A DNA stretch of 64,000 nucleotides from Escherichia phage vB_EcoM_ESCO56. The translations under genes were made by a program, and so were the position numbers. The stretch is taken from the sequence record OM386665.1. One strand, given 5' to 3'. Under the pieces are notes generated by a model. It ran no database searches, was not told the DNA's origin, and was given only the letters and a program-made list of their open reading frames with translations. Positions 1,873 to 25,584 of the stretch are shown here, in pieces; positions within the stretch are counted from its first letter, which is position 1, and each line of letters begins with the position of its first letter.

Positions 1873-3489
1873 TCAACGCCTAAGCCCCTCATATGGGTTT
1901 CCTCTCACTAAGTCTGTGTGAGCACCCATTGATGGTGGCTTGAATAATTTAACTTCGTTAAGACTGTTGAAAGCATCACTGGTAGCATCCACTTGGTCAT
2001 CTTTAGTTTTGCCATCACCACAAAAGCCTTCAAGCTCTTGAAAATAAGCTTCGTTCCAACTACCTCTCAAAACTTTTACAAGTCCAGCTTCAGAAGCAGC
2101 AGAAAACCCCGCAAATCGGGTAACTTTATCTTTATTTGTTGGTTTAGCTCTTGCACGATAGCCTTTCTCGGCAAGTTTCCTGATGAGGGATGTTGCGTAG
2201 GATTTACCAGCAGCGCCTGGGTCTTGAGGGATAAAAATACCAGTTCGCTTACCGTCACTTTCAGCAGTCAAATTAATTTGTGTTTCGACTCCAGAGGGTC
2301 TATCTCTAAATCTTACTACATCAATGATATAATAGCAACCGTCTTTTTTAGATTTACCCATCTTAACACCTGCTGTCCAGTCTGGATTAGGGTTAACCTC
2401 AGATGGTAAAGTTGCTGCTAAGTCCCATGCTCTAACATCAAATACATCTTCTGGGAGTGAATCAACAATCTCACACCATTGTCTTTGCCAGTAGTTTGAA
2501 CCTTCTGCACGAGCCTTCCAGTTACCAAAACGAAGTCTTGCAACGTTTACAGGAGTGTTGTTTTCCAACTTACCACGATACTTAGGTTCTAAGAAGTCAA
2601 GAATTGGGTTATCATCAATCGTACCAGAGATAAAGGTGTATGTTTGAGGAATCTCAAGAGGGAACATTTCAAGAATCTTGTCTCTCTCCCAATCAGAAAC
2701 CATCACACCATCATTCATTACATACCAACGAATACGACCACACTTTTCAGGGTCTGGATAACCTTCTTCATCTAAGAATGGTTCTACCCAATCGTAAATA
2801 AAGTGGTCTCTATCTGGGTTCATGGAAATCTTCATGTATGAATCACCATCAGCACCAGAACGTAGACGGGTTTGTAGGTATGAAATCTGTGAAGCAGAGA
2901 AGTGTGTACCTTCATCAAAGTAAATAGCTGAGTATTCAATACCCTGATGACCTTCAGCGTGCTTTTCAAGTTCTAGGTAGGTAAACTTGATAGTTGCCCC
3001 AGAAGGGAATGTGATAGTCATTTTCTGCTCGTGAGGAATCCCACCAAACTTACCAAATAGTTTCTTTGCAGCAGGCCATAAACCACCTTGTAACTGTGTT
3101 GTATTTCGACGGAAATACACAGCATTATAGTTAGGGTCTTCAATAAATCTTAAAGAGTCCATTAACAACGCGGCAGTCTTACCAGCACCAGCAGCACCAC
3201 CATAAAGAACCAAGTCAGCATTAGTGTTTAAAAAGACCTCTTGAGAACCCGGCTGAGGGGCTACATAGTTCTTATCAGTCATCAATTTAAAGATGAGGCG
3301 AACTTGGTCTGGTGTGTATCTTAATAAAGTCAGAATTTGAGTTGGAAGGAATTTAGAGGGGTCTTTACCGAATGATTTAATAATTTCTTTTACTTCATCA
3401 GAAAGCCCCAACTCTCCAGCTAGGACTTTCCTAACATCTTCCACTCGCTTCTGCTTAACAGTATTTAAGTCCATTAAGCGCCTCCGCAA
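1873..3489 (-). CDS. terminase large subunit
   Basis: 538 aa; Walker A P-loop YGGAAGAGKTAALL in N-terminal ATPase region followed by a nuclease-sized C-terminal domain; precedes portal gene. Confidence 0.85.
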   Translation of the reverse strand: MRRRLMDLNTVKQKRVEDVRKVLAGELGLSDEVKEIIKSFGKDPSKFLPTQILTLLRYTPDQVRLIFKLMTDKNYVAPQPGSQEVFLNTNADLVLYGGAAGAGKTAALLMDSLRFIEDPNYNAVYFRRNTTQLQGGLWPAAKKLFGKFGGIPHEQKMTITFPSGATIKFTYLELEKHAEGHQGIEYSAIYFDEGTHFSASQISYLQTRLRSGADGDSYMKISMNPDRDHFIYDWVEPFLDEEGYPDPEKCGRIRWYVMNDGVMVSDWERDKILEMFPLEIPQTYTFISGTIDDNPILDFLEPKYRGKLENNTPVNVARLRFGNWKARAEGSNYWQRQWCEIVDSLPEDVFDVRAWDLAATLPSEVNPNPDWTAGVKMGKSKKDGCYYIIDVVRFRDRPSGVETQINLTAESDGKRTGIFIPQDPGAAGKSYATSLIRKLAEKGYRARAKPTNKDKVTRFAGFSAASEAGLVKVLRGSWNEAYFQELEGFCGDGKTKDDQVDATSDAFNSLNEVKLFKPPSMGAHTDLVRGNPYEGLRR

Positions 3490-4093: not shown

Positions 4094-4828
4094 TTATCTT
4101 TGTAATGCGCTCTTCATTTCTGGTGTTGCAATAGTATCAATCACACCAGTTTTACAAGCATCATCAAACCAGTCTGGTAAGATACCTGCTAAGAACCCAT
4201 TGATATTCGTTTTAAGGTACTCTGCAATAAGGGCAGCTTCTTCTTCAATCATCTGCACAACTTCATCTGCATAAGCTGTAATCTTTGAGATACCTTCATT
4301 AATCTTACTAACAGCCTGATTAGCTAAATCAGAAATAGTCTCAAGACCCTCATCAATAGCGTCTTGTAAGTCACTTAACACACCGTTAACACTGTCTAGT
4401 GTGCTGTTAATCATGTCAATAGCTTGCTGACCATACTCTGTAGCAACACCCATAATACCACTAAATGGTGTACAACCAACTTGTTCTCCTGCTGCACCCA
4501 TAACATTGGAGTATCCCTTTGCTACCTGCATACGTGATGAAAACTCATCAATAGACTTTTGACCGTAGTCTGTTAGGGTCTTAGTAGTTGCTGTAGTGCT
4601 TGTAAGGCTTGTTGTAAAACTGTTTAGAAGGACTGTTGTAAGTCCAGCAGCAACAAGCTTCTCCTTCATTGTAGGGTCTGTTACAGAGCTAATAGAGCTT
4701 ACAAGTGATGTAGAGGCAGCTACGGTTCCACCGAGAACTGCTGCACCAGTAATAAGTGGGTTAGAAAACCCTCTACCGGTTTTTAAGAGATTAAAAATCT
4801 CCTTACCTTGTTCTGTCATCTCTTTCAT
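4094..4828 (-). CDS. hypothetical protein (Ser/Thr-rich, coiled-coil C-terminus)
   Basis: Track ORF 4094..4876 overlaps the tRNA at 4845-4923; trimmed to ATG at 4828 (MKEMTEQ...) with AAAGGTG RBS. Confidence 0.55.
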   Translation of the reverse strand: MKEMTEQGKEIFNLLKTGRGFSNPLITGAAVLGGTVAASTSLVSSISSVTDPTMKEKLVAAGLTTVLLNSFTTSLTSTTATTKTLTDYGQKSIDEFSSRMQVAKGYSNVMGAAGEQVGCTPFSGIMGVATEYGQQAIDMINSTLDSVNGVLSDLQDAIDEGLETISDLANQAVSKINEGISKITAYADEVVQMIEEEAALIAEYLKTNINGFLAGILPDWFDDACKTGVIDTIATPEMKSALQR

Positions 4829-5740: not shown

Positions 5741-5835
5741 GTAGAAGAGGTCTGAAGTTGTGCCGCTAACTCAACTCCGTGGAATTTGTTACGGTCTTCA
5801 GTTGACACCAGCGGTCTTTCACTTGACCTCTGAAT

Positions 5836-5912
5836 TGGTGCTGCTCACAGGACTTGAACCTGCATTTCCATCCTTACAAGGGATGTGTAATAGCCAATTA
5901 TACGAAAGCAGC
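5836..5912 (-). tRNA. tRNA-Thr (anticodon UGU)
   Basis: Acceptor GCTGCTT/GAGCAGC, anticodon stem CATCC/GGATG with loop CTTGTAA, T-loop TTCAAGT, A73, CCA. Confidence 0.75.
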
Positions 5913-5919
5913 ATTAATT

Positions 5920-5996
5920 TGGTACACCTAGAGAGATTCGAACTCACACTGAGCAGATTCTAAGTCTGCTGCCTCTACCAGTTGGGCTATAGGTGC
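5920..5996 (-). tRNA. tRNA with anticodon UAG (Leu-decoding) but class-I length
   Basis: Acceptor GCACCTA/TAGGTGT, D-arm GCC-CAACTGGTAGA-GGC, anticodon stem GCAGA/TCTGC with loop CTTAGAA, T-loop TTCGAAT, A73, CCA. Confidence 0.65.
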
Positions 5997-6074
5997 ATTA
6001 AATCTTTTTAGAGAACTTCTAAGAACCTAAGCAACAAGGTTCCACAACAAGCTGTAATAACCTTAGAAGCCCTC

Positions 6075-6250
6075 TAAAAAGACCTAAAAAGGTCTTTGCA
6101 TAGTCTTGTTTAATCCGGTGACTAGAACCTTTGGAGAGCTTGATATTATCTCTTCTCCGTGACACCTGCTAGGTGCTTTATGAGTGTGTACGACAATACA
6201 CGCGGGATACCAAAGCAACACCCTAATGAAGCTTGGCTTTAAATCTTATT
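6075..6250 (-). ncRNA. candidate small structured RNA between tRNA genes, ending in an intrinsic terminator
   Basis: No tRNA fold found. Minus-sense sequence carries hairpins GTGTA-TTGTCG-TACAC, CACC-TAGCA-GGTG, GGAGA..TCTCC, then AGACC-TTTTT-AGGTCT followed by TTTT (6075-6096). 5' end not defined. Confidence 0.3.
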
Positions 6251-6253
6251 AGG

Positions 6254-6341
6254 CGGTAAGTAAAGGAGTCGAACCCTCACCGTATCTCTACAGTGGCAAC
6301 TGTTTTCAAGACAGTTTGGCTACCATTAGCCGCTACCTACC
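6254..6341 (-). tRNA. tRNA-Ser (anticodon UGA), class II
   Basis: Acceptor GGTAGGT/ACTTACC, anticodon stem ACTGT/ACAGT with loop CTTGAAA, about 20-nt variable arm, T-loop TTCGACT, G73; CCA not fully encoded. Confidence 0.7.
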
Positions 6342-6354
6342 CCTAATAAGACTT

Positions 6355-6437
6355 TGGCATGGGACGGAGGAGTTGAACCCCTTTGAAACGGTGTTGGAAG
6401 CCGTTGCTCATGCCTTAGAGTCTTAACATCGTCCCAT
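6355..6437 (-). tRNA. tRNA candidate, anticodon probably CCA (Trp); D region about 7 nt longer than canonical
   Basis: Acceptor ATGGGAC/GTCCCAT, T-loop TTCAACT, G73, CCA; anticodon register inferred from distance to T-loop (loop TTCCAAC); D-arm could not be folded canonically. Confidence 0.4.
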
Positions 6438-6580
6438 ACTATAATTCGAAGCTTACCGTATTATCTCAACACTGTAAAGCCCCTTCTCAGATTATTTACA
6501 TGTTCTGGAAAACATGAGATACAGACCACCTCCCTACAGGAAGACCCGCTTAGGTCGTCTAAGTAATCTGCTAACTAAAT

Positions 6581-18940: not shown

Positions 18941-19114
18941 ATAGCCCCTATAACATACTTTTTAGTGACTATCAAGCCCTTTTTAGTAGTTCACGAGATA
19001 CTAATCAGCCTATAAGCTTATACCCTTAAAAGATTCTTTTAAGGCTCTGTAAAGCCTTATAAAGGGCTTTTTAAGGTTAGTTAATGCAATCCCTTAAGTT
19101 ATATTGATAATGCT

Positions 19115-19134
19115 GTTATAGAGCGTTATAGAGC
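19115..19134. repeat. tandem 10-bp repeat GTTATAGAGC x2
   Basis: gttatagagc gttatagagc. Confidence 0.8.
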
Positions 19135-19312
19135 GTTTAAAGGTTTGCCCTTCCCTCTCGGGCTATGGGCTTGTATTTAAGTTGATTTGATAAAAGGCTA
19201 TAGGGTAGACTATAGAGTTATTGCTTTTTAAGGTATGAGATAAACTCTATCGAATCAGTGGGGAGATTCTAGAAAGGTGAGGAAAGGGATTGCATAAGGA
19301 TTTGATAGACGT

Positions 19313-19335
19313 AAAAAAGCCCCCATTTAAGGGGC
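19313..19335 (-). terminator. intrinsic terminator for the minus-strand early region
   Basis: Minus strand: GCCCC-TTAAATG-GGGGC hairpin followed by TTTTTT (plus-strand A-run 19313-19318). Confidence 0.65.
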
Positions 19336-19379
19336 TTTATAAAGGTATCTGGGGCTATTTAGCCCCGTTGATTGACAAT

Positions 19380-19910
19380 TTACAGATTTTTGATTGTATC
19401 ATCGATATCTTTTTCAATATCTTTTAAAGTTTTTTCTAAATTCTTGATATTGAAAGATAAGCCCTCTCCCAATGTCTTAGTGTAACCTTCAGGACGTGAG
19501 TTATATAGTTCAATTTCTTCCACTTCAAAGAGACTCACCGCCTCACCGTTTACATTGTAAGCCATTGAAACAGTATTTACAGGGGCTTTATAAAACTTGT
19601 TCAATGACTTGATTGAACGCTCATAAGTCATTTTATAACTGTTTAACAGGTTTTTAACGTGATTGTAAATGTTTTTACACTCATCTAAGTAAATCTCTAA
19701 GAATAACGGTAATAATTTTGCGACAGCTTGCATGAAATGAGAGACTACAACGGTTGCAACATTACGACGATGGACATAATAAGCCCCTTTTCCTGATTTA
19801 GTGATAGTTGCAAAATGTACACCATTGCAGCGAAATTCATATGTATCTTTGACAGGTTTAGACATTACAGCGCTTGAACGAATGAAGTTGATAGCTTGAA
19901 ATTTGTTCAT
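19380..19910 (-). CDS. hypothetical protein
   Basis: 176 aa ORF; GGAGA RBS; preceded by a family-1 promoter/leader cassette. Confidence 0.6.
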   Translation of the reverse strand: MNKFQAINFIRSSAVMSKPVKDTYEFRCNGVHFATITKSGKGAYYVHRRNVATVVVSHFMQAVAKLLPLFLEIYLDECKNIYNHVKNLLNSYKMTYERSIKSLNKFYKAPVNTVSMAYNVNGEAVSLFEVEEIELYNSRPEGYTKTLGEGLSFNIKNLEKTLKDIEKDIDDTIKNL

Positions 19911-19942
19911 TTTAGAATCTCCAGTTTAGGACTTTATTTAGT

Positions 19943-19962
19943 GGGGAGGTCATACCCTCCCC
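19943..19962 (-). repeat. leader hairpin, family 1 (GGGGAGG-loop-CCTCCCC), copy 1
   Basis: Lies between putative promoter and RBS of gene 19380..19910; repeated upstream of three other genes. Confidence 0.7.
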
Positions 19963-19972
19963 GTTGATTAGT

Positions 19973-20001
19973 AATTTACTTGGTTTGATATCTGATTGCA
20001 A
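19973..20001 (-). promoter_or_regulatory. sigma70-like early promoter (TTGCAA-N17-TAAATT)
   Basis: Minus-strand reading; followed by conserved hairpin leader and GGAGA RBS. Confidence 0.45.
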
Positions 20002-20136
20002 GCATTTTTTTTTTTTAAGTTTAGCTATAAAGAAATCTTTTAAGTGAATCCCTTTTAGATAAGCCCCCTCGAACAACATTATCAATGTCAAGGGGCGTTG
20101 TCAATACTTTTTTAAAAGTTTTTTGTAAGTTATTGA

Positions 20137-20478
20137 TTAACTGATGAATATTTTTTCAGGTTTTACATAGCTGATACGCTGATTTTTTAGAAGGTCATCC
20201 CAGATTAGCGCGGCAATATGAGAATAGCCGGATTCACGTAGAATCTTCATCGTTTTACATCTCGTTTCAAATCTGGTTGCATAGTACTCACTATTTAAAA
20301 CCGTTTTATTGCCTTCATTGTCCACATGTATAATTTGCATCACTTGAAAGGGGCTTACATCCTCGCCCTTGTTCCATTGTTCAAAGTATTTTAGGCACTG
20401 TATAGGTGTCATCTTGTCACTTACTTGAGTTGACCAAGATGAATCCTCTTTATCGGTAATTACGGTTACATAAGCCAT
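20137..20478 (-). CDS. hypothetical protein
   Basis: 113 aa ORF behind family-1 cassette. Confidence 0.55.
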   Translation of the reverse strand: MAYVTVITDKEDSSWSTQVSDKMTPIQCLKYFEQWNKGEDVSPFQVMQIIHVDNEGNKTVLNSEYYATRFETRCKTMKILRESGYSHIAALIWDDLLKNQRISYVKPEKIFIS

Positions 20479-20511
20479 ATTTTGAATCTCCAGTTTAGGA
20501 CTTTATTTAGT

Positions 20512-20531
20512 GGGGAGGTCATACCCTCCCC
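20512..20531 (-). repeat. leader hairpin, family 1, copy 2
   Basis: ggggaggtcataccctcccc; same context as copy 1. Confidence 0.7.
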
Positions 20532-20567
20532 GTTGATTAGTAATTTACAGATTTTTATCTGGCTTGT

Positions 20568-20801
20568 CTAGTCTTTTTCAATGATAATTTCATCTTGCCC
20601 GTCAACACTGTCAAAATAGATTCCGTCGTTATCTTCTGTCTTAAAGTAGCATTTAATATCATCACTGGCGGGGTAGTCTTGTCTTGCTATCTGGCAAACC
20701 TGAATAGCATTTTCTTTACTCCCTGTAAACTCCTCAAGCCCTTTAAAATCGCATGAATACCCATTACAGGTGGAAAGGATGAGATAAACGGTTGTAAGCA
20801 T
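20568..20801 (-). CDS. hypothetical protein
   Basis: 77 aa ORF. Confidence 0.45.
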   Translation of the reverse strand: MLTTVYLILSTCNGYSCDFKGLEEFTGSKENAIQVCQIARQDYPASDDIKCYFKTEDNDGIYFDSVDGQDEIIIEKD

Positions 20802-20867
20802 GATTAAAGCCCTCTAAAAGCCCCTACAAGGGGCTGAATAGTGTTTATAAGGTGATTGTATAGGTTA

Positions 20868-21410
20868 TTAGAAAAAGCTCCTTAAATCCTCTTCTGCGAT
20901 GTTTCCTGTTAGTGTATCCATGATGTCACAAAAAACCTGAATGCTGTCCACCTGTTGCACACTTTTAGCGAGAAGTTCTAGAGGCTCCTCAATATAGTTT
21001 AAATTCGGATTATCCAATGAAGGGAGACAGAAAGGTGAGTACATCGCATTAAATTCAGTGATGTAAACTTTTTTAATCCAGCTTATATCAAAATACTCTG
21101 TAAAACTTGCTACGCTAGACATATTATCGCAAGAATAATCATCATTTAGGTCATCTTCTGGAATATCAAGTTCTAAGATAACAATATTTTGAGTTTTCAT
21201 TTGAAAGGCCGCTGATATAGTGGCATTTCCTAGCGCTTGTTGAATTCCTTCCGATGTTATCTCTTGCTCATCGTCGCCATAGATTTTATTTTCTGGGTAC
21301 ACGTAGAAATTGCCGTCCATGTCCGAACAATTCCATGCACCTGATGGCTTATCACCGTTATTAATCAGGTTGATAAAATTTTCTTGAGTAGTGCCGTGAA
21401 AACATTTCAT
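20868..21410 (-). CDS. hypothetical acidic protein
   Basis: 180 aa ORF behind family-2 cassette. Confidence 0.55.
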   Translation of the reverse strand: MKCFHGTTQENFINLINNGDKPSGAWNCSDMDGNFYVYPENKIYGDDEQEITSEGIQQALGNATISAAFQMKTQNIVILELDIPEDDLNDDYSCDNMSSVASFTEYFDISWIKKVYITEFNAMYSPFCLPSLDNPNLNYIEEPLELLAKSVQQVDSIQVFCDIMDTLTGNIAEEDLRSFF

Positions 21411-21456
21411 TTTAGAATCTCCTAGTTTAAGGATTAAGTGATAAAGCTCTTTATCT

Positions 21457-21485
21457 GGGGCTTACTATATCGAACTATAAGCCCC
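21457..21485 (-). repeat. leader hairpin, family 2 (GGGGCTTA-loop-TAAGCCCC), copy 1
   Basis: ggggcttactatatcgaactataagcccc upstream of gene 20868..21410. Confidence 0.7.
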
Positions 21486-21500
21486 TTGTAAAGTACTTTA

Positions 21501-21701
21501 TCAATTATTTTTTACAACTTTTAAAACAGCAAGATAGCCTAAGCAATAGGAATCACCAAAGAGAGTCCGGCCCATGAATGAATCCTCCTTGATATCCTTT
21601 TCAGTGACGGTTTTTTCTACGCCGTGGGAGAGGACTACATCACCAACTTTAATATCTTTGATGTGAGTAGTCTCAATGTTTAAACCGTTAATAATAGCCA
21701 T
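21501..21701 (-). CDS. hypothetical protein
   Basis: 66 aa ORF behind family-1 cassette. Confidence 0.45.
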   Translation of the reverse strand: MAIINGLNIETTHIKDIKVGDVVLSHGVEKTVTEKDIKEDSFMGRTLFGDSYCLGYLAVLKVVKNN

Positions 21702-21736
21702 ATTTTGAATCTCCTAGTTTAAGGACTTTACTTAGT

Positions 21737-21757
21737 GGGGAAGGTCATTCCCTCCCC
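21737..21757 (-). repeat. leader hairpin, family 1, copy 3
   Basis: ggggaaggtcattccctcccc. Confidence 0.7.
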
Positions 21758-21805
21758 GTTGATGTGTAATTTAGTCTATCTAAAAACCAGTGTCAATAAA
21801 AATTT

Positions 21806-22210
21806 TTAGATTTCTGCATAAATTGAATCGCAGATATCGCGGAAGTCGTGGTTTGTCAAATTACGTTGCAACCAAGTAGCAAAGAAATCAGCGATTGCAA
21901 AATTCGCGCCATACTCGACGGATAGCCATACTTTCACGGCGAATCTGAACATTTTTAAATCAAGTTCTTTACTCATTACCTTAGATTTGCCCAACATGTC
22001 AGACATTTCATATTGTGCGCCGTCTAGCGTGATACCCGCTGCAACGTCAATCAGTGATTTTTTTACGCTTTCAACGTCTAAGATAACACTTTGAATCTTC
22101 CCGATAATGTTTTGCAGTGTTTCATCTGGCGCTGATGATGTCAGAGCATTAATCCGGTTAACGGTCAAACGTGCTTTTAAGATTAATAACTCACGGCTAT
22201 TAATAGTCAT
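21806..22210 (-). CDS. hypothetical protein
   Basis: 134 aa ORF behind family-2 cassette. Confidence 0.55.
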   Translation of the reverse strand: MTINSRELLILKARLTVNRINALTSSAPDETLQNIIGKIQSVILDVESVKKSLIDVAAGITLDGAQYEMSDMLGKSKVMSKELDLKMFRFAVKVWLSVEYGANFAIADFFATWLQRNLTNHDFRDICDSIYAEI

Positions 22211-22254
22211 TTTAGAATCTCCAATTTAGGATTTAGCGGTAAAGTTCTTTATCT

Positions 22255-22283
22255 GGGGCTTACTATATCGAACTATAAGCCCC
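22255..22283 (-). repeat. leader hairpin, family 2, copy 2
   Basis: ggggcttactatatcgaactataagcccc. Confidence 0.7.
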
Positions 22284-22295
22284 TTGTAAATTACT

Positions 22296-22568
22296 TTATA
22301 CTAAATGCAGCTTTTTGCCTTTTACCATGATGTAACTTGATGCGCTATTACTATATACATCCTGATAAATTCTGCGCAAACGTCCTTCATAGTGAACTTT
22401 CCAGCTCGTTGGTATCTTTTTCCCATATCCGGTAGCAGTTTTTTGAAGTCCAGCAATTTGCCAATCCAAAATATGTTGTTCCGCTTGTAAATCCTCAAAA
22501 TTCATCACGCCGTCTACATAGTGGCGTAGAGTGACATTTAGAGTACGGCCATTGTTAGTAGTATACAT
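22296..22568 (-). CDS. hypothetical protein
   Basis: 90 aa ORF behind family-1 cassette. Confidence 0.5.
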   Translation of the reverse strand: MYTTNNGRTLNVTLRHYVDGVMNFEDLQAEQHILDWQIAGLQKTATGYGKKIPTSWKVHYEGRLRRIYQDVYSNSASSYIMVKGKKLHLV

Positions 22569-22603
22569 CTTTTGAATCTCCTAGTTTAAGGACTTTACTT
22601 AGT

Positions 22604-22624
22604 GGGGAAGGTCATACCCTTCCC
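22604..22624 (-). repeat. leader hairpin, family 1, copy 4
   Basis: ggggaaggtcatacccttccc. Confidence 0.7.
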
Positions 22625-22634
22625 GTTGATGTGT

Positions 22635-22663
22635 AATTTAATATATCTAAAAATCAGTGTCAA
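22635..22663 (-). promoter_or_regulatory. sigma70-like early promoter (TTGACA-N17-TAAATT)
   Basis: Minus-strand reading, same architecture as promoter at 19973-20001. Confidence 0.5.
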
Positions 22664-22992
22664 CTGTTTTGTTTTCGTTTGCTCATTTCTTGAGCAATTA
22701 CAGCGTAGTAGTCTTTTAAGTTACTGATATTTAAAGCATTTAGTAGAGAGTTATAATCATCAACTAACTGGAAATCCTCTTTAAGGATGTCACTTATCTG
22801 ATAGGTTTCCGCTTTAAATCTAAAGCTCATCTCTAGCCGTTTTATTTGCTCATCGCTTAAACGCTCTAAAAAGCTCTCTACGAGGCTATTGCTAACCTGT
22901 TGTGTGATAGCCTTATCTGCTAAATTATAGGCGCTGTAAGCCTTATAAAGCGCTATAATGGCGATGATTGCAGTGATTCCCATCATTAACAT
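22660..22992 (-). CDS. hypothetical membrane protein
   Basis: 110 aa; N-terminal transmembrane helix MLMMGITAIIAIIALYKAY. Confidence 0.55.
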   Translation of the reverse strand: MLMMGITAIIAIIALYKAYSAYNLADKAITQQVSNSLVESFLERLSDEQIKRLEMSFRFKAETYQISDILKEDFQLVDDYNSLLNALNISNLKDYYAVIAQEMSKRKQNS

Positions 22993-23008
22993 GGTGTTTC
23001 CTCTTAAT

Positions 23009-23521
23009 TTAATTTTTAAAGATATTCATCACTGAATCTTTTAAGGCTTCTAGTTGTTCCATAACTTCAGATTCTGCGCCTGAATTGCTCACTTCCTCTT
23101 TTAGTCTATCTTCTAAATCAACGCCGTCGCTATAGCTCCAATCGAAAGCGTAACCAATAGAAAAACTATCTAAAACCGTTTTTCCGTTTGCGTCTACAAC
23201 TTTTGCAGATAGGTAATATTCTGAAGCCTCTAAATCCCTTTCTAGTTCTCTTTGTAAGCTCATGTAAGCCTCACGGGATGGATTTTCCCGGCCTTGTTTT
23301 GCATAGTCGCTTGAAATCTGTTTAAGGCTGTAATGTAAAGGGATTGCATATTTAAATTCATTGCGTTGATAGTTAGGATTTTTAATAGTCACACCGCCTT
23401 GATGGTCATCTGTAAACTCCCAATTTTCAAGGGCATGACTTGGTTCATACCAAGTAACAGCTTCATAAATGATTGAAAATTTTTCTTTTACAACTTCAAA
23501 GGTTGCGTCTACAGTTTTCAT
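23009..23521 (-). CDS. hypothetical protein
   Basis: 170 aa ORF behind family-2 cassette. Confidence 0.55.
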   Translation of the reverse strand: MKTVDATFEVVKEKFSIIYEAVTWYEPSHALENWEFTDDHQGGVTIKNPNYQRNEFKYAIPLHYSLKQISSDYAKQGRENPSREAYMSLQRELERDLEASEYYLSAKVVDANGKTVLDSFSIGYAFDWSYSDGVDLEDRLKEEVSNSGAESEVMEQLEALKDSVMNIFKN

Positions 23522-23565
23522 TTTTAAGTTCTCCAGTTTAGGTTTAGTGATAAAGCTCTTTATCT

Positions 23566-23594
23566 GGGGCTTACTATATCGAACTATAAGCCCC
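23566..23594 (-). repeat. leader hairpin, family 2, copy 3
   Basis: ggggcttactatatcgaactataagcccc. Confidence 0.7.
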
Positions 23595-23609
23595 TTGTAA
23601 AGTACTTTA

Positions 23610-24005
23610 TCAGTTAATTTTGAAGATAGTCACATATCCATCGCTCCCGATGATTTGAGAGACTCCAGCTTTTTCTACTGAATAGCCCATATTCTCAAGA
23701 TGATAAACAGCATCACCATAACCATATGCGCCGCCCTGATAGCGTCTCTTATTGCATTTTATCAGGTTTTTACCACGTCCAGCAAGTGCATTTAATACGG
23801 CTTTTTCACTTGAAAGCGTACCGTCTAACATTGTTGCCGTGTAATGATTGATTTTATTCCCGTTGATATCATACTTGAAATTGTATGCGTGAACAACAAT
23901 TATTTTATCGTTAAATTTTTCATCAAGCGCCTTCTCTAATACATTACGGAAATTTTCTTTATTGATGAATTTAGGTGCACGATATGTCATTTTTAAGTTC
24001 TCCAA
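23610..24005 (-). CDS. hypothetical protein
   Basis: 131 aa ORF behind family-2 cassette. Confidence 0.55.
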   Translation of the reverse strand: MENLKMTYRAPKFINKENFRNVLEKALDEKFNDKIIVVHAYNFKYDINGNKINHYTATMLDGTLSSEKAVLNALAGRGKNLIKCNKRRYQGGAYGYGDAVYHLENMGYSVEKAGVSQIIGSDGYVTIFKIN

Positions 24006-24035
24006 TTTAGGATTTAGCGGTAAAGCTCTTTATCT

Positions 24036-24064
24036 GGGGCTTACTATATCGAACTATAAGCCCC
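24036..24064 (-). repeat. leader hairpin, family 2, copy 4
   Basis: ggggcttactatatcgaactataagcccc. Confidence 0.7.
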
Positions 24065-24079
24065 TTGTAAAGTACTTTT

Positions 24080-24286
24080 TTAGATTTCGTAGTAGTAAAC
24101 TGCTGTCTGTCTTATGTGCTTTCTTGTGTTTCTTGTAAGATAGCAATTAGAGTCTATAGCCGTTTCTACATAATTGCAATAATCAGACTCTGAAATTCTG
24201 GACCATGCACCGCAAATTTGCATGTAAAAACGCTTTACATTTGTGTTAACGTTAGTTGTGACCATCAATTCACGACCGTATAGCAT
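24080..24286 (-). CDS. hypothetical protein
   Basis: 68 aa ORF, first gene after the 24.3-24.8 kb repeat region. Confidence 0.45.
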   Translation of the reverse strand: MLYGRELMVTTNVNTNVKRFYMQICGAWSRISESDYCNYVETAIDSNCYLTRNTRKHIRQTAVYYYEI

Positions 24287-24339
24287 TTTTAGATTCTCCT
24301 AGTTTAAGGCTATTGGGCTTGTTTGCCTGTCTGATGAAA

Positions 24340-24368
24340 ATACTAAATGACCATATCCAGAGAGTCAA
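24340..24368 (-). promoter_or_regulatory. sigma70-like promoter (TTGACT-N17-TAGTAT) with A-rich UP-like region
   Basis: Minus-strand reading; upstream of gene 24080..24286. Confidence 0.5.
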
Positions 24369-24546
24369 TAAAAAATTTTAAAAATATTTTCAGGAATTGC
24401 CAGAGAGGAACGGGTGCGCGCGAATACCACAAAACAGAACACAAATCAAGAATTATTTTTCAATCCGCTACAAATTTTTCTGTTGACTTTTCTTTTTGGA
24501 TGTGGTAGCCTTGTGAGAAATGGCGACATCCCCGCCTAGACCCGCT

Positions 24547-24726
24547 TACCTGCACAATTCTAAAATGATTTTTCTTGCCCGACCTGATTTTTCTCTGCAC
24601 GTTTTGAAAATGAAAAAGCTCTTTGGAGATTACCTGCACAGTTTGAAAATGAATTTTCTCTTTGGAGTTCAAAATTTTCTCTACAGATTTCTCTATAGAA
24701 ATATACCTGCACAATTCTGAAATGAA
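24547..24726. repeat. three direct repeats of about 22 bp TACCTGCACA(A/G)TT(C/T)T(A/G)AAATGA
   Basis: Copies at 24547-24567, 24631-24652, 24705-24726; also duplicated TTGAAAATGAA..CTCTTTGGAG near 24603 and 24644. Confidence 0.8.
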
Positions 24727-24798
24727 AAAGCCCTCCTTACCTGAAAAATTTACCAGATAAGAAAGGCTTAGTCTATTGTGAATATTCTACAGAGTTTC

Positions 24799-25584
24799 TT
24801 AGTTCTTTGCGTCTAAGAAGGTAACTTCTGGTGAAGAGAAGATTGCCTCGATATCCTCATCAGTTCTTGCATAAATGTAAGCATCGGCATCACTACCAAA
24901 TGTCACAGCAATTCTGTGATTGCTCTTCGACAGGTGGGTAACTAGAGCGTTACTTAGAGACATCTTTTCAACCGGAGGGTTACTTTGATGTATCTTACCT
25001 TTTCTTCGTCTGAAGAGGGTAACTGCGTTATCTGTGAACACAACTACACCTGCAAAGTATTCTGGTTCACAGTAGTTTTTCCAACCTGAGTGTAACTTGT
25101 TGTACATCTCTGTCTCGTAGACATACAGATAAACATCTACGCTCTTCATAACCTGATTGATGATAACTGTGACAGCTTGAGGGTCAAGTCCACCGATACC
25201 TGCACCAATCATAGGTAAACCAACTTTCTTCAACTGGTTAACTTCACAGTATCTGTTAAGTTGCTTCAAAGATGACTCTAAAGCACTGTATCGGGCGTCT
25301 TTACCAGTCTTAAGCTGAGTGTAAAGGTTAGCTATACGACCTTGTTTTAAACGTGCTACAGAGAAATTACCCAGTAAATTTTCACAGGGTTTGTGACCTA
25401 TACCACCTGCATAGATGTAAACTTCTGTATCGGTCTCATATGCTTTTGGGTAAAGTTTAGAAATCTTGTCAGCGATACCTGCACCCATTAAATTCATACA
25501 GTTGCAACCGTGACCAATGATGTCAAACTTACCTTTATCAAAGGCGTCAAAGATATCACCATTGATGATTTTTACAATACCCAT
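24799..25584 (-). CDS. macro-domain protein (ADP-ribose binding/hydrolase fold) with C-terminal domain of unknown function
   Basis: 261 aa; N-terminal IINGDIFD, GHGCNCMNLMGAGIA and GLPMIGAGIGGLDP match macro-domain glycine-rich loops; about 110-aa C-terminal extension unassigned. Confidence 0.65.
   Translation of the reverse strand: MGIVKIINGDIFDAFDKGKFDIIGHGCNCMNLMGAGIADKISKLYPKAYETDTEVYIYAGGIGHKPCENLLGNFSVARLKQGRIANLYTQLKTGKDARYSALESSLKQLNRYCEVNQLKKVGLPMIGAGIGGLDPQAVTVIINQVMKSVDVYLYVYETEMYNKLHSGWKNYCEPEYFAGVVVFTDNAVTLFRRRKGKIHQSNPPVEKMSLSNALVTHLSKSNHRIAVTFGSDADAYIYARTDEDIEAIFSSPEVTFLDAKN

Follow-up and report, generated by a model that had tools for sequence, protein, structure and literature searches.

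Repeated promoter and stem-loop cassettes in a small-gene cluster of a Felix O1-like phage: probable PeSL-type modules outside the T4-like phages

Introduction

Near-identical sequences stand ahead of most of the small genes located between 19.9 and 24.4 kb in a 64,000-nucleotide stretch of Escherichia phage vB_EcoM_ESCO56 (record OM386665.1; the whole stretch is called the window below), and each combines a sigma70-like promoter, a hairpin and a ribosome-binding site (RBS). What such a unit does, why it is repeated from gene to gene, and whether its hairpin acts in DNA or in RNA, are the questions raised by this locus. Our analysis leads to the view that the cassettes are probably of the promoter-early stem-loop (PeSL) type, situated in the hyperplastic early region of a Felix O1-like phage. 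On the best reading, they are PeSL-type by design and not by homology; the repeated feature itself is real and clearly non-random.

PeSLs were described in the T4-like phages RB49/phi1, T4/PST and KVP40/nt-1 (Arbiol et al. 2010, PMC2839356; Comeau et al. 2014, PMC4122927) as a repeated intergenic motif comprising the upstream stop codon, an AT-rich tract, a sigma70 promoter, a polyG...polyC stem-loop, a Shine-Dalgarno (SD) sequence and ATG. Five subclasses were defined by the position of the stem-loop, the commonest having it between -35 and -10 or overlapping -10, and another downstream of -10. In the same studies, PeSL promoters were very strong in lacZ fusions, one PeSL stem-loop lowered lacZ read-through as much as rrnB T1, and recombination of neighbouring PeSLs gave mini-circles and accounted for indels between sister phages; the authors also speculated about a protein binding GGGG...CCCC (PMC2839356, PMC4122927).

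In the Felix O1 lineage, these sequences have been recorded under other names. The Felix O1 genome paper lists them as "57 bp" and "39 bp direct repeats", and its authors had no explanation for transcription passing many terminators, nor for its timing. The wV8 record lists the cassettes as DR_1 to DR_9, and the AYO145A and ASO1A records give them as separate "promoter" and "terminator" features. The repeats are not discussed in the wV8 and VpaE1 papers, and, within the literature searched, papers using the term PeSL concern, by title, T4-like or jumbo phages, with none of them on a Felix O1-like phage. On the best reading, what is new here is the presence of PeSL-type cassettes in a lineage where they have been listed as direct repeats only.

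Results

Eight cassettes of two families precede eight of eleven small genes

The window is Felixounavirus DNA: by BLAST, positions 19300-24500 share 94.8% identity with Escherichia phage ESCO50 and 85-88% with many Felix O1-like phages, and about 230 Felixounavirus genomes were matched. All genes of the cassette cluster lie on the minus strand and form a single unit of 11 small open reading frames (ORFs; 66-180 aa) framed by intrinsic terminators at 24769-24728 and 19333-19320 (Table 1). Eight of the 11 ORFs are each preceded by a cassette of 85-105 nt, four belonging to a family that we call A and four to a family that we call B. As the initial annotation had proposed, these are near-identical direct repeats (79-100% identity). 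A profile search with nhmmer returned the eight copies at E ~1e-26 and no further copies in the 64 kb window, and the cassettes are limited to 19.9-24.4 kb. A ninth promoter cassette (P), whose hairpin is degenerate, stands ahead of the first ORF, 24080-24286; in phage SUSP2, the hairpin of the first cassette is intact (GGGCaaacaaGCCC).

In the direction of transcription the order is P, B, B, none, A, B, A, B, terminator-like, A, A. The proposed gene-by-gene alternation of the two families is seen mid-unit only, and the genes served are not eight consecutive ones: a 16 nt spacer without a cassette couples ORF 22660-22992 to its neighbour, and ORF 20568-20801 is preceded by a terminator-like hairpin that is not a cassette (20820-20834), the counterpart of which is annotated as a rho-independent terminator in the wV8 record.

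The 3' part, (C)ACTAA..CCT(T)AAACT(A)GGAGATTC..ATG, is common to A and B, whose 5' parts are distinct. Intergenic regions measure 85-104 nt for seven cassettes, with A4 sitting in a 226 nt spacer. The bounds of the cassettes are the upstream stop codon and the SD and start codon, GGAG being found 8-10 nt ahead of ATG in all of them, and a conserved RBS region is present as first described (GGAGATTC[T/A]AAA-ATG or GGAGAACTTAAAA-ATG). The claim of a sigma70-like promoter in each cassette is also borne out. The match to consensus is 10/12 in six cassettes, 9/12 in A3 and 8/12 in A4, and six of the seven 10/12 matches that top a sigma70 scan of 19000-25000 are cassette promoters. The order of promoter, stem-loop and RBS given in the initial annotation fits A and not B, where the stem-loop encloses the promoter spacer and the -10 element.

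Four copies of GGGGCTTA-13 nt-TAAGCCCC are present, each as an identical 29-mer. Four hairpins with a G-run and a C-run are likewise found, and these were not all GGGGAGG/CCTCCCC as had been stated: two have that stem, a third has GGGGAGGG/CCTTCCCC and the fourth GGGAAGG/CCTTCCC. In agreement with the first description, no T-run follows any hairpin, the 12 nt beyond each stem containing 2-4 T, and no hairpin was called terminator-like; simple intrinsic terminators were therefore rejected for all eight.

A PHROGs scan of ten ORFs (all but 19380-19910) matched families of unknown function only. In a Pfam scan of ten ORFs (all but 20568-20801), nothing exceeded threshold and no DNA- or RNA-binding domain was seen, and an Rfam scan of 19000-25000 (E up to 1) gave only a chance match to mir-980, at 20.7 bits compared with a gathering score of 47.

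Table 1. Cassettes, genes and flanking signals of the unit (window coordinates)
Feature	Position	Strand	Description
ORFs of the unit (11)	19380..24286	-	ORF list; all of unknown function
ORFs 1-4	24080-24286, 23610-23990, 23009-23521, 22660-22992	-
ORFs 5-8	22296-22568, 21806-22210, 21501-21701, 20868-21410	-
ORFs 9-11	20568-20801, 20137-20478, 19380-19910	-
Upstream intrinsic terminator	24728..24769	-	Strong, 17 bp stem + T-run; t13 of Felix O1; ends preceding operon, upstream edge of unit
P, first promoter cassette	24287..24370	-	TTGACT-N17-TAGTAT 24340-24368; degenerate hairpin AGGCaaacaaGCCC 24315-24328; RBS; ahead of ORF 24080-24286
B1	23991..24079	-	TTTACA-N17-TATAGT 24043-24071; core hairpin 24036-24064; ahead of ORF 23610-23990
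B1 extended read-through hairpin	~24022-24078	-	dG -24.2, z -3.8
B2	23522..23612	-	Promoter 23573-23601; core hairpin 23566-23594; ahead of ORF 23009-23521
B2 extended hairpin	23548-23612	-	Upstream TGA stop included; dG -29, z -5.6
A1	22569..22663	-	TTGACA-N17-TAAATT 22635-22663; leader hairpin GGGAAGG/CCTTCCC 22604-22624; ahead of ORF 22296-22568
B3	22211..22298	-	Promoter 22262-22290; core hairpin 22255-22283; ahead of ORF 21806-22210
B3 extended hairpin	~22240-22298	-	dG -22.7, z -3.5
A2	21702..21805	-	AT-rich tract; TTGACA-N17-TAAATT 21768-21796; leader hairpin 21737-21757; ahead of ORF 21501-21701
B4	21411..21503	-	Promoter 21464-21492; core hairpin 21457-21485; ahead of ORF 20868-21410
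B4 extended hairpin	21439-21503	-	Upstream TGA stop included; dG -31.5, z -5.8
Short terminator hairpin	20820..20834	-	Canonical-looking, GCCCCttgtaGGGGC then TTTT; between ORFs 20868-21410 and 20568-20801; not a cassette
A3	20479..20570	-	TAGACA-N17-TAAATT 20542-20570; leader hairpin 20512-20531; ahead of ORF 20137-20478
Orphan promoter-in-hairpin	20063..20104	-	TTGACA-N17-TAATGT 20076-20104; hairpin GCCCCTTG...CGAGGGGGC 20063-20096; no gene directly behind
A4	19911..20001	-	TTGCAA-N17-TAAATT 19973-20001; leader hairpin 19943-19962; ahead of ORF 19380-19910
Downstream intrinsic terminator	19320..19333	-	CCCTTAAATGGGGG then TTTTTT; similar to t23 of Felix O1; downstream edge of unit
dG, predicted folding free energy (kcal/mol).

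The predicted B promoter lies inside a covarying RNA hairpin

In the B cassettes, promoter and hairpin are interleaved. The 5' arm lies in the spacer, the "TA" of the -10 element is in the apical loop, and the 3' arm spans the last base of -10 to about +1. The predicted start is the A of AGATAAAG, just below positions 24043, 23573, 22262 and 21464, so that the transcript would begin AGAUAAAG..., and the B leader itself folds to an essentially unstructured state (0 to -3 kcal/mol). Since the predicted start is just past the 3' arm, the B hairpin should form only in RNA coming from the upstream gene, and a leader hairpin belonging to B's own gene was rejected on account of its position upstream of the predicted start and of the unstructured leader. 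In read-through RNA, a lower stem that the initial annotation had not described begins at or next to the upstream stop codon; beyond a one-base mismatch come five CUUUA/UAAAG pairs contributed by the -35 region, which a 3x3 internal loop, CAA/AGA in B2, separates from an upper stem of 9 bp. This extended hairpin is bulged and about 20 bp long, with free energies of -22.7 to -31.5 kcal/mol (z -3.5 to -5.8) for the copies in the window.

To follow the design among relatives, the homologous cluster was compared in 13 further phages of the genera Felixounavirus, Mooglevirus, Suspvirus and Kolesnikvirus, and B statistics were obtained from 68 distinct copies in 14 phages of these 4 genera. Copies from each of the four genera fold into the same arrangement of a lower and an upper stem around an internal loop (-18 to -31.5 kcal/mol, z -2.7 to -6.4). 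TTTACA does not vary (each position is kept in 67-68 of 68 copies), a 17 nt spacer follows, and the -10 element has T in 68/68 copies, A in 68/68, three N positions and then T in 67/68, with the other loop positions varying freely. An invariant TAnnnT amid a variable loop is the pattern expected of a -10 element.

In the alignment, 87.6% of cells of the proposed structure are paired, compared with 34-53% when partners are slid by 1-3 columns, and the covariation score of 0.109, compared with 0.061 in shuffles, is reached by none of 500 shuffles, a control that leaves relatedness among the copies in place. Covariation across the aligned cassettes, which had been named as a check at the outset, is thus found in B. 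Compensatory changes occur in the upper stem, where one pair is GC in 64 copies and UA in 4, another is CG in 46, UG in 21 and UA in 1, and GGGG/CCCC becomes GGTG/CACC in phiEa21-4, as well as in the lower stem (GC in 56, UA in 9). G·U pairs number 118 compared with 12 A·C, and pairing cells make up 96.2% on the coding strand and 88.4% on the other strand. The excess of G·U over A·C points to a structure favoured in RNA, on the coding strand. In a variant that we call B', the arms have lost their own palindromic symmetry yet pair with each other over 13 contiguous bp. One phiEa21-4 variant of B keeps the promoter and the upper hairpin, and the lower stem is absent. Taken from the aligned sequences, the evidence is that B would serve as promoter and RNA structure at once and that this is conserved in Felixounavirus, Mooglevirus, Suspvirus and Kolesnikvirus. 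The -10 "TA" is unpaired and the 5' arm lies in the spacer, which should make the promoter and RNA-structure functions separately mutable.

The shape of the read-through RNA bears on processing by RNase III, one of the roles suggested for the hairpins in the initial annotation. In the early region of T7, RNase III signals lie between early genes that host RNA polymerase transcribes, and consist of bulged hairpins with an internal loop and about 20 bp. B recalls these sites in shape and, like them, is a bulged intercistronic hairpin of about 20 bp; unlike B, the T7 sites contain no promoter. If the B cassettes were T7-style sites, long transcripts would be cut in the internal loop, the upstream message would keep a 3' hairpin, and the downstream message would receive a 5' end close to that of the embedded promoter's own transcript. 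Consistent with this, the read-through RNA has, in the four genera, a lower stem of 5-13 bp, a symmetric internal loop of 2-3 nt and 8-12 bp of upper stem, which together make about 20 bp, and the lower stem shows GC-to-UA covariation. The phiEa21-4 variant without a lower stem, A hairpins too short for RNase III, and the lack of an Rfam match in 19000-25000 count against it. Compared with the roughly two turns of imperfect duplex typical of T7-type sites, B is predicted to offer about 20 bp with a 3x3 loop and A only 7-8 bp, so that processing appears implausible for A and plausible for B with its lower stem. Such cleavage is compatible with the PeSL-type reading, and as the explanation of B we consider it possible, if rather unlikely.

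A more inclusive proposal, which we likewise hold only tentatively and would not expect to be correct in full, is that B is a dual-coded unit in at least four Ounavirinae genera. An active sigma70 promoter would be contained in a processing hairpin of about 60 nt, with -35 in the lower stem and the -10 "TA" in the apical loop, read-through RNA would be cut or stopped at the internal loop to give nearly the same start nucleotide (the A of AGAUAAAG), and the two non-homologous families would limit repeat deletion. If true, the downstream gene would get the same leader however its message arose, and the presence of A and B side by side would limit gene deletion by repeat recombination. The coincidence is an attractive one, in that a processed 5' end would be nearly that of the promoter start if either RNase III or termination were to act at the B internal loop.

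A related arrangement exists in bacteria. In promoter-coupled terminators, the stem-loop coincides with -35, a T-tract lies just before -10, and the RNA 3' end is about 10 bp before the start site (Fletcher et al. 2026 preprint, 10.64898/2026.08.19.745784). There too, one stretch of DNA between tandem genes is both the RNA stem-loop of the upstream unit and the promoter of the downstream unit. The cassettes differ from them, in that B has no T-tract and its stem-loop spans the spacer, -10 and +1, enclosing the -10 element.

The same data weigh on a role of the inverted repeats in DNA, where a dimeric protein of phage or host would bind them as operators and switch the early promoters off together. 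The candidate sites would be GGGGCTTA..TAAGCCCC, TAAAGTACTTTA and GATAAAGAGCTTTATC; inverted repeats do overlap -35, -10 and +1 to +17 of B, AGATAAAGAGCTTTA hardly varies from genus to genus, and a protein acting on GGGG...CCCC was also the speculation of the PeSL authors. However, the arms change by compensation and are not conserved in sequence (CTTA/TAAG to TTTA/TAAA, in addition to the GGTG/CACC exchange), G·U is tolerated on one strand only, the B' arms pair without being palindromic, and none of the ten cluster ORFs scanned against Pfam has a DNA-binding domain. Regulator binding to DNA palindromes, as raised in the initial annotation, is thus disfavoured by inter-arm covariation and G·U strand asymmetry, and we regard the operator model as improbable.

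The A hairpin lies at a fixed distance from the promoter

The A cassettes have a promoter (TTGACA, TAGACA or TTGCAA, N17, TAAATT), then 10 nt, then a G/C hairpin of 7-8 bp. In the 61 copies parsed, which come from 13 phages, the distance from the -10 hexamer to the hairpin is 10 nt in 56, 11 nt in 4 and 9 nt in 1. Because A stems slip register (GGGGAGGG/CCTTCCCC compared with GGGAGG/CCTCCC), column-based covariation was dropped and A was assessed by folding each copy; a stem of at least 6 bp formed in 57 of the 61 parsed copies, with a median free energy of -13.7 kcal/mol. Stems vary between genera (GGGGAGGG..., GGGCAAGCAAGCCC, GGGGCAAG...AGCCCC), and position and G/C character are retained. 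In A1, the -35 element overlaps the stop codon of the upstream ORF. An AT-rich tract upstream of -35 is clear in A2 (aaatttttaTTGACA) and A4 (a run of 12 A); the only counterpart in B is ATAAAGTAC, a segment that the lower stem uses as well.

A start 7-8 nt past -10 is predicted to fall at the CA of ATCAAC, with the hairpin then running from about +3 or +4. Given this position in the predicted transcript, a role in mRNA stabilisation or attenuation would be reasonable. The ompA leader is a 5'-terminal stem-loop that stabilises mRNA, and A is like it in that its hairpin is predicted to lie within 2-4 nt of the 5' end of the transcript. The conserved 5' leader hairpin of the initial annotation therefore describes A, where it stands 9-11 nt after -10 in 61 of 61 copies, and does not describe B.

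The fixed geometry of both families also bears on whether the hexamers are promoters at all. If they were incidental, the cluster would be one operon transcribed from 24340-24368, and the hairpins would be punctuation for RNA stability or decay. In favour of this, the whole region has 20 promoter-like sites compared with 19.4 in shuffled sequence, and we found no start-site data for Felix O1-like phages in the literature. Nevertheless, TTTACA, the 17 nt spacer and TAnnnT are invariant in an otherwise variable loop among the 68 distinct B copies, the A hairpin is held 10 nt after TAAATT, cassette promoters provide six of the region's seven best sigma70 matches, and the analogous PeSL promoters are very strong by experiment. 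We therefore give the single-operon model little credence.

Least probable of all is that the A hairpins are nut/boxB-like antitermination sites, where a phage factor would be loaded for read-through of downstream hairpins; although they lie immediately downstream of early promoters and some relatives have GAAA-type loops (GGGGAGGGAAACTTCCCC in Michonne), A loop sequences vary, and lambda-type nut sites were rejected since the region has no boxA-like motif and the PHROGs and Pfam scans of the cluster ORFs recognised no N-like or Q-like protein.

We also noted that the 5' arm of the A hairpin (e.g., 21737-21757) contains GGAGG, a perfect SD core, and that the 3' arm contains CCUCC or CCUUCC, which is anti-SD-like. 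This likeness may be incidental or may bear on 30S binding near the 5' end.

Single genes are gained and lost together with single cassettes

When a single cassette was used as a BLAST query, 4-10 copies per genome were found in Felixounavirus, Citrobacter phage Michonne, Shigella Sf13-like phages and Escherichia phage SUSP2, and the promoter/hairpin half of B also matched Erwinia phage phiEa21-4. In wV8, the places matched by BLAST (5 B, 7 A) are as many as the copies inside this single cluster, indicating that the cassettes are confined to the cluster genome-wide. With the clusters written as strings of cassettes and gene families, gene order is conserved, and single ORFs are gained or lost with exactly one cassette (families 10, 14, 3, 17 and 16). 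For example, [B]10[B]3 here corresponds to [B]10[B]14[B]3 in BPS15Q2. Family 3 is absent from wV8, and family 10 from Felix O1 and ASO1A; family 17 is present, absent, or in place of family 12, and family 16 is present or absent between A copies. A larger difference is seen in Felix O1, which lacks 12-[B]-6-7 (three ORFs) between two A copies. These gains and losses among relatives lie mostly between cassettes of the same family. In the window, the repeats are spaced by 470 bp (around ORF 23610-23990), 569 bp (around ORF 20137-20478), 798 bp and 867 bp. The eight cassettes, 16% of the cluster, hold 33 of 74 homology breakpoints (binomial p ~6e-9, for events that are not phylogenetically independent), and most others are found at the first cassette or where families 3 and 4 adjoin.

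The copies within a genome resemble one another in ways that cut across orthology. One orthologous junction carries differing loop variants in different phages, the same loop is found in 4/4 B copies here and in 3/4 in ESCO50, and a private TATAGT variant occurs in all eight B copies of the two phages. At two variable sites about 25 nt apart, all four combinations are found among the four B copies of the window. The variation in loops at one junction, together with the shared private variant, indicates that the cassettes evolve in concert.

In Michonne (5822-6509), an 85 aa ORF (family 14) and a B cassette are duplicated in tandem, with a partial extra cassette in a 172 nt spacer. Judged by its sequence, this duplication is a direct footprint of what would be unequal crossing-over between cassettes. 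A mobile element resembling miniature inverted-repeat transposable elements is unsupported, all copies having one orientation and a register fixed between stop and start codon.

Other features of the cluster

The unusually long 226 nt spacer ahead of A4 (20002-20136, minus strand) contains an orphan composite of promoter and hairpin (Table 1), followed by a second hairpin, CUUAUCUA...UAGCUAAA, which recurs in Michonne and SUSP2, and then by the run of 12 A. The orphan may be a relic half-cassette or a small RNA.

In all nine cassettes, a weak mini-hairpin with the constant loop UAAAYU, about 10-25 nt before ATG (e.g., 21420-21435), includes part of the SD in its stem. It exists as two haplotypes that differ by a paired indel, UCCU/AGGA (CCTTAAACTAGG) and UCC/GGA (CCTAAACTGG), and in copies inspected by eye the T and A occur together. 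With two haplotypes only, this is weak evidence for a structure that fine-tunes translation.

Directly upstream of the unit, the last gene of the preceding operon is a 261 aa ORF (24799-25584, minus strand) that relatives annotate as a phosphatase, a macro-domain protein or an O-acetyl-ADP-ribose deacetylase. No ORF is found in the 512 nt gap between the terminator at 24728-24769 and the first promoter (window 24400-24800). The motif (TTA)CCTGCACAnTTyTGAAAATGA, about 20-34 nt, occurs there four times (~24546, 24595, 24630 and 24703, in plus-strand reading), and its copies could be iterons, regulator sites or a piece of non-coding RNA. From the 261 aa gene through the gap, identity is about 89-92% across the other Felixounaviruses compared; ESCO50 and SP2 are near-identical and set apart.

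In the ESCO50 record, cluster ORFs of 65 aa and 110 aa (3074-3271, 4232-4564) are labelled "prohead assembly scaffold protein" and "tail tube protein", and the public record of I14.1 is filed under Tequintavirus with a sequence that is Felix O1-like; these are probable annotation errors in public records.

Discussion

The cassettes of this Felix O1-like phage share most of the properties that define PeSLs. By consensus match and conservation, a sigma70-like early promoter is contained in a repeated intergenic motif that unites it with a GGGG...CCCC stem-loop, SD and start codon, bounded upstream by a stop codon. The stem-loop overlaps the spacer and -10 (B) or lies just past -10 (A), placements known among PeSLs, and the cassettes are grouped among functionally uncharacterised small ORFs, where, with exceptions, they flank indels and replacements between related phages. 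The differences are also clear. PeSLs belong to T4-like myoviruses, whereas the window is from a Felixounavirus, one of the Ounavirinae (~86 kb), with no sequence similarity between the two kinds of element. Here there are two sharply defined families with a common 3' leader/RBS module, the B stem extends into a covarying lower stem reaching the upstream stop codon, and conservation covers four genera. For PeSLs, mini-circles, promoter strength and termination were measured; the description given here is one of sequence and predicted structure.

By analogy with PeSLs, we infer that each cassette would be a self-contained expression module for the ORF behind it, consisting of a host sigma70 promoter, a leader and a strong GGAG RBS, at which host RNA polymerase would start transcription early in infection. 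The stem-loop would act in RNA, on the coding strand. In A, it may cap the 5' end of the mRNA, protecting it from 5'-end-dependent decay, and may hinder polymerases coming from upstream. In B, the hairpin would form on read-through RNA only and attenuate read-through as a PeSL stem-loop does, insulating neighbouring modules, or it might provide the upstream message with a protective 3' end or an RNase III-type cut; the embedded promoter would then restart transcription. Near-identical copies in one orientation could act as homology patches for the deletion, duplication, insertion and replacement of ORFs.

Several observations weigh against this interpretation. No T4-like or other unrelated phage group was among the BLAST matches listed for the cassettes, so that the resemblance to PeSLs is one of design, not descent. 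The hairpins have no U-tract, and hence are not classical intrinsic terminators. Within B, five lower-stem pairs never vary and are uninformative either way, and the outermost three pairs are mostly unpaired. Apart from the shared ancestry of breakpoints already mentioned, a cassette on one side only is seen for the indels of family 11 (between families 3 and 4) and of family 29. A literature search found no start-site, RNA sequencing or transcript-end data for Felix O1-like phages. In reverse transcription PCR experiments on Felix O1, cluster ORFs 16, 20, 21 and 22 were maximal at 5 min, but the maximum for ORFs 17, 19 and 23 came at 25 min, at odds with a uniform early class.

The PeSL-type reading accounts for what the Felix O1 paper and GenBank records contain as repeats or as a "promoter followed by terminator". 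If it is true, "plug-and-play" cassettes of promoter and stem-loop are not peculiar to T4-like phages, and a second, unrelated group of virulent enterobacterial phages would have arrived by convergence at the same means of carrying and exchanging small accessory genes. The Felix O1-like group is in wide use in Salmonella and E. coli typing and biocontrol, and the PeSL-type reading predicts the sites at which genes would be gained and lost in therapeutic Felix O1-like phages.

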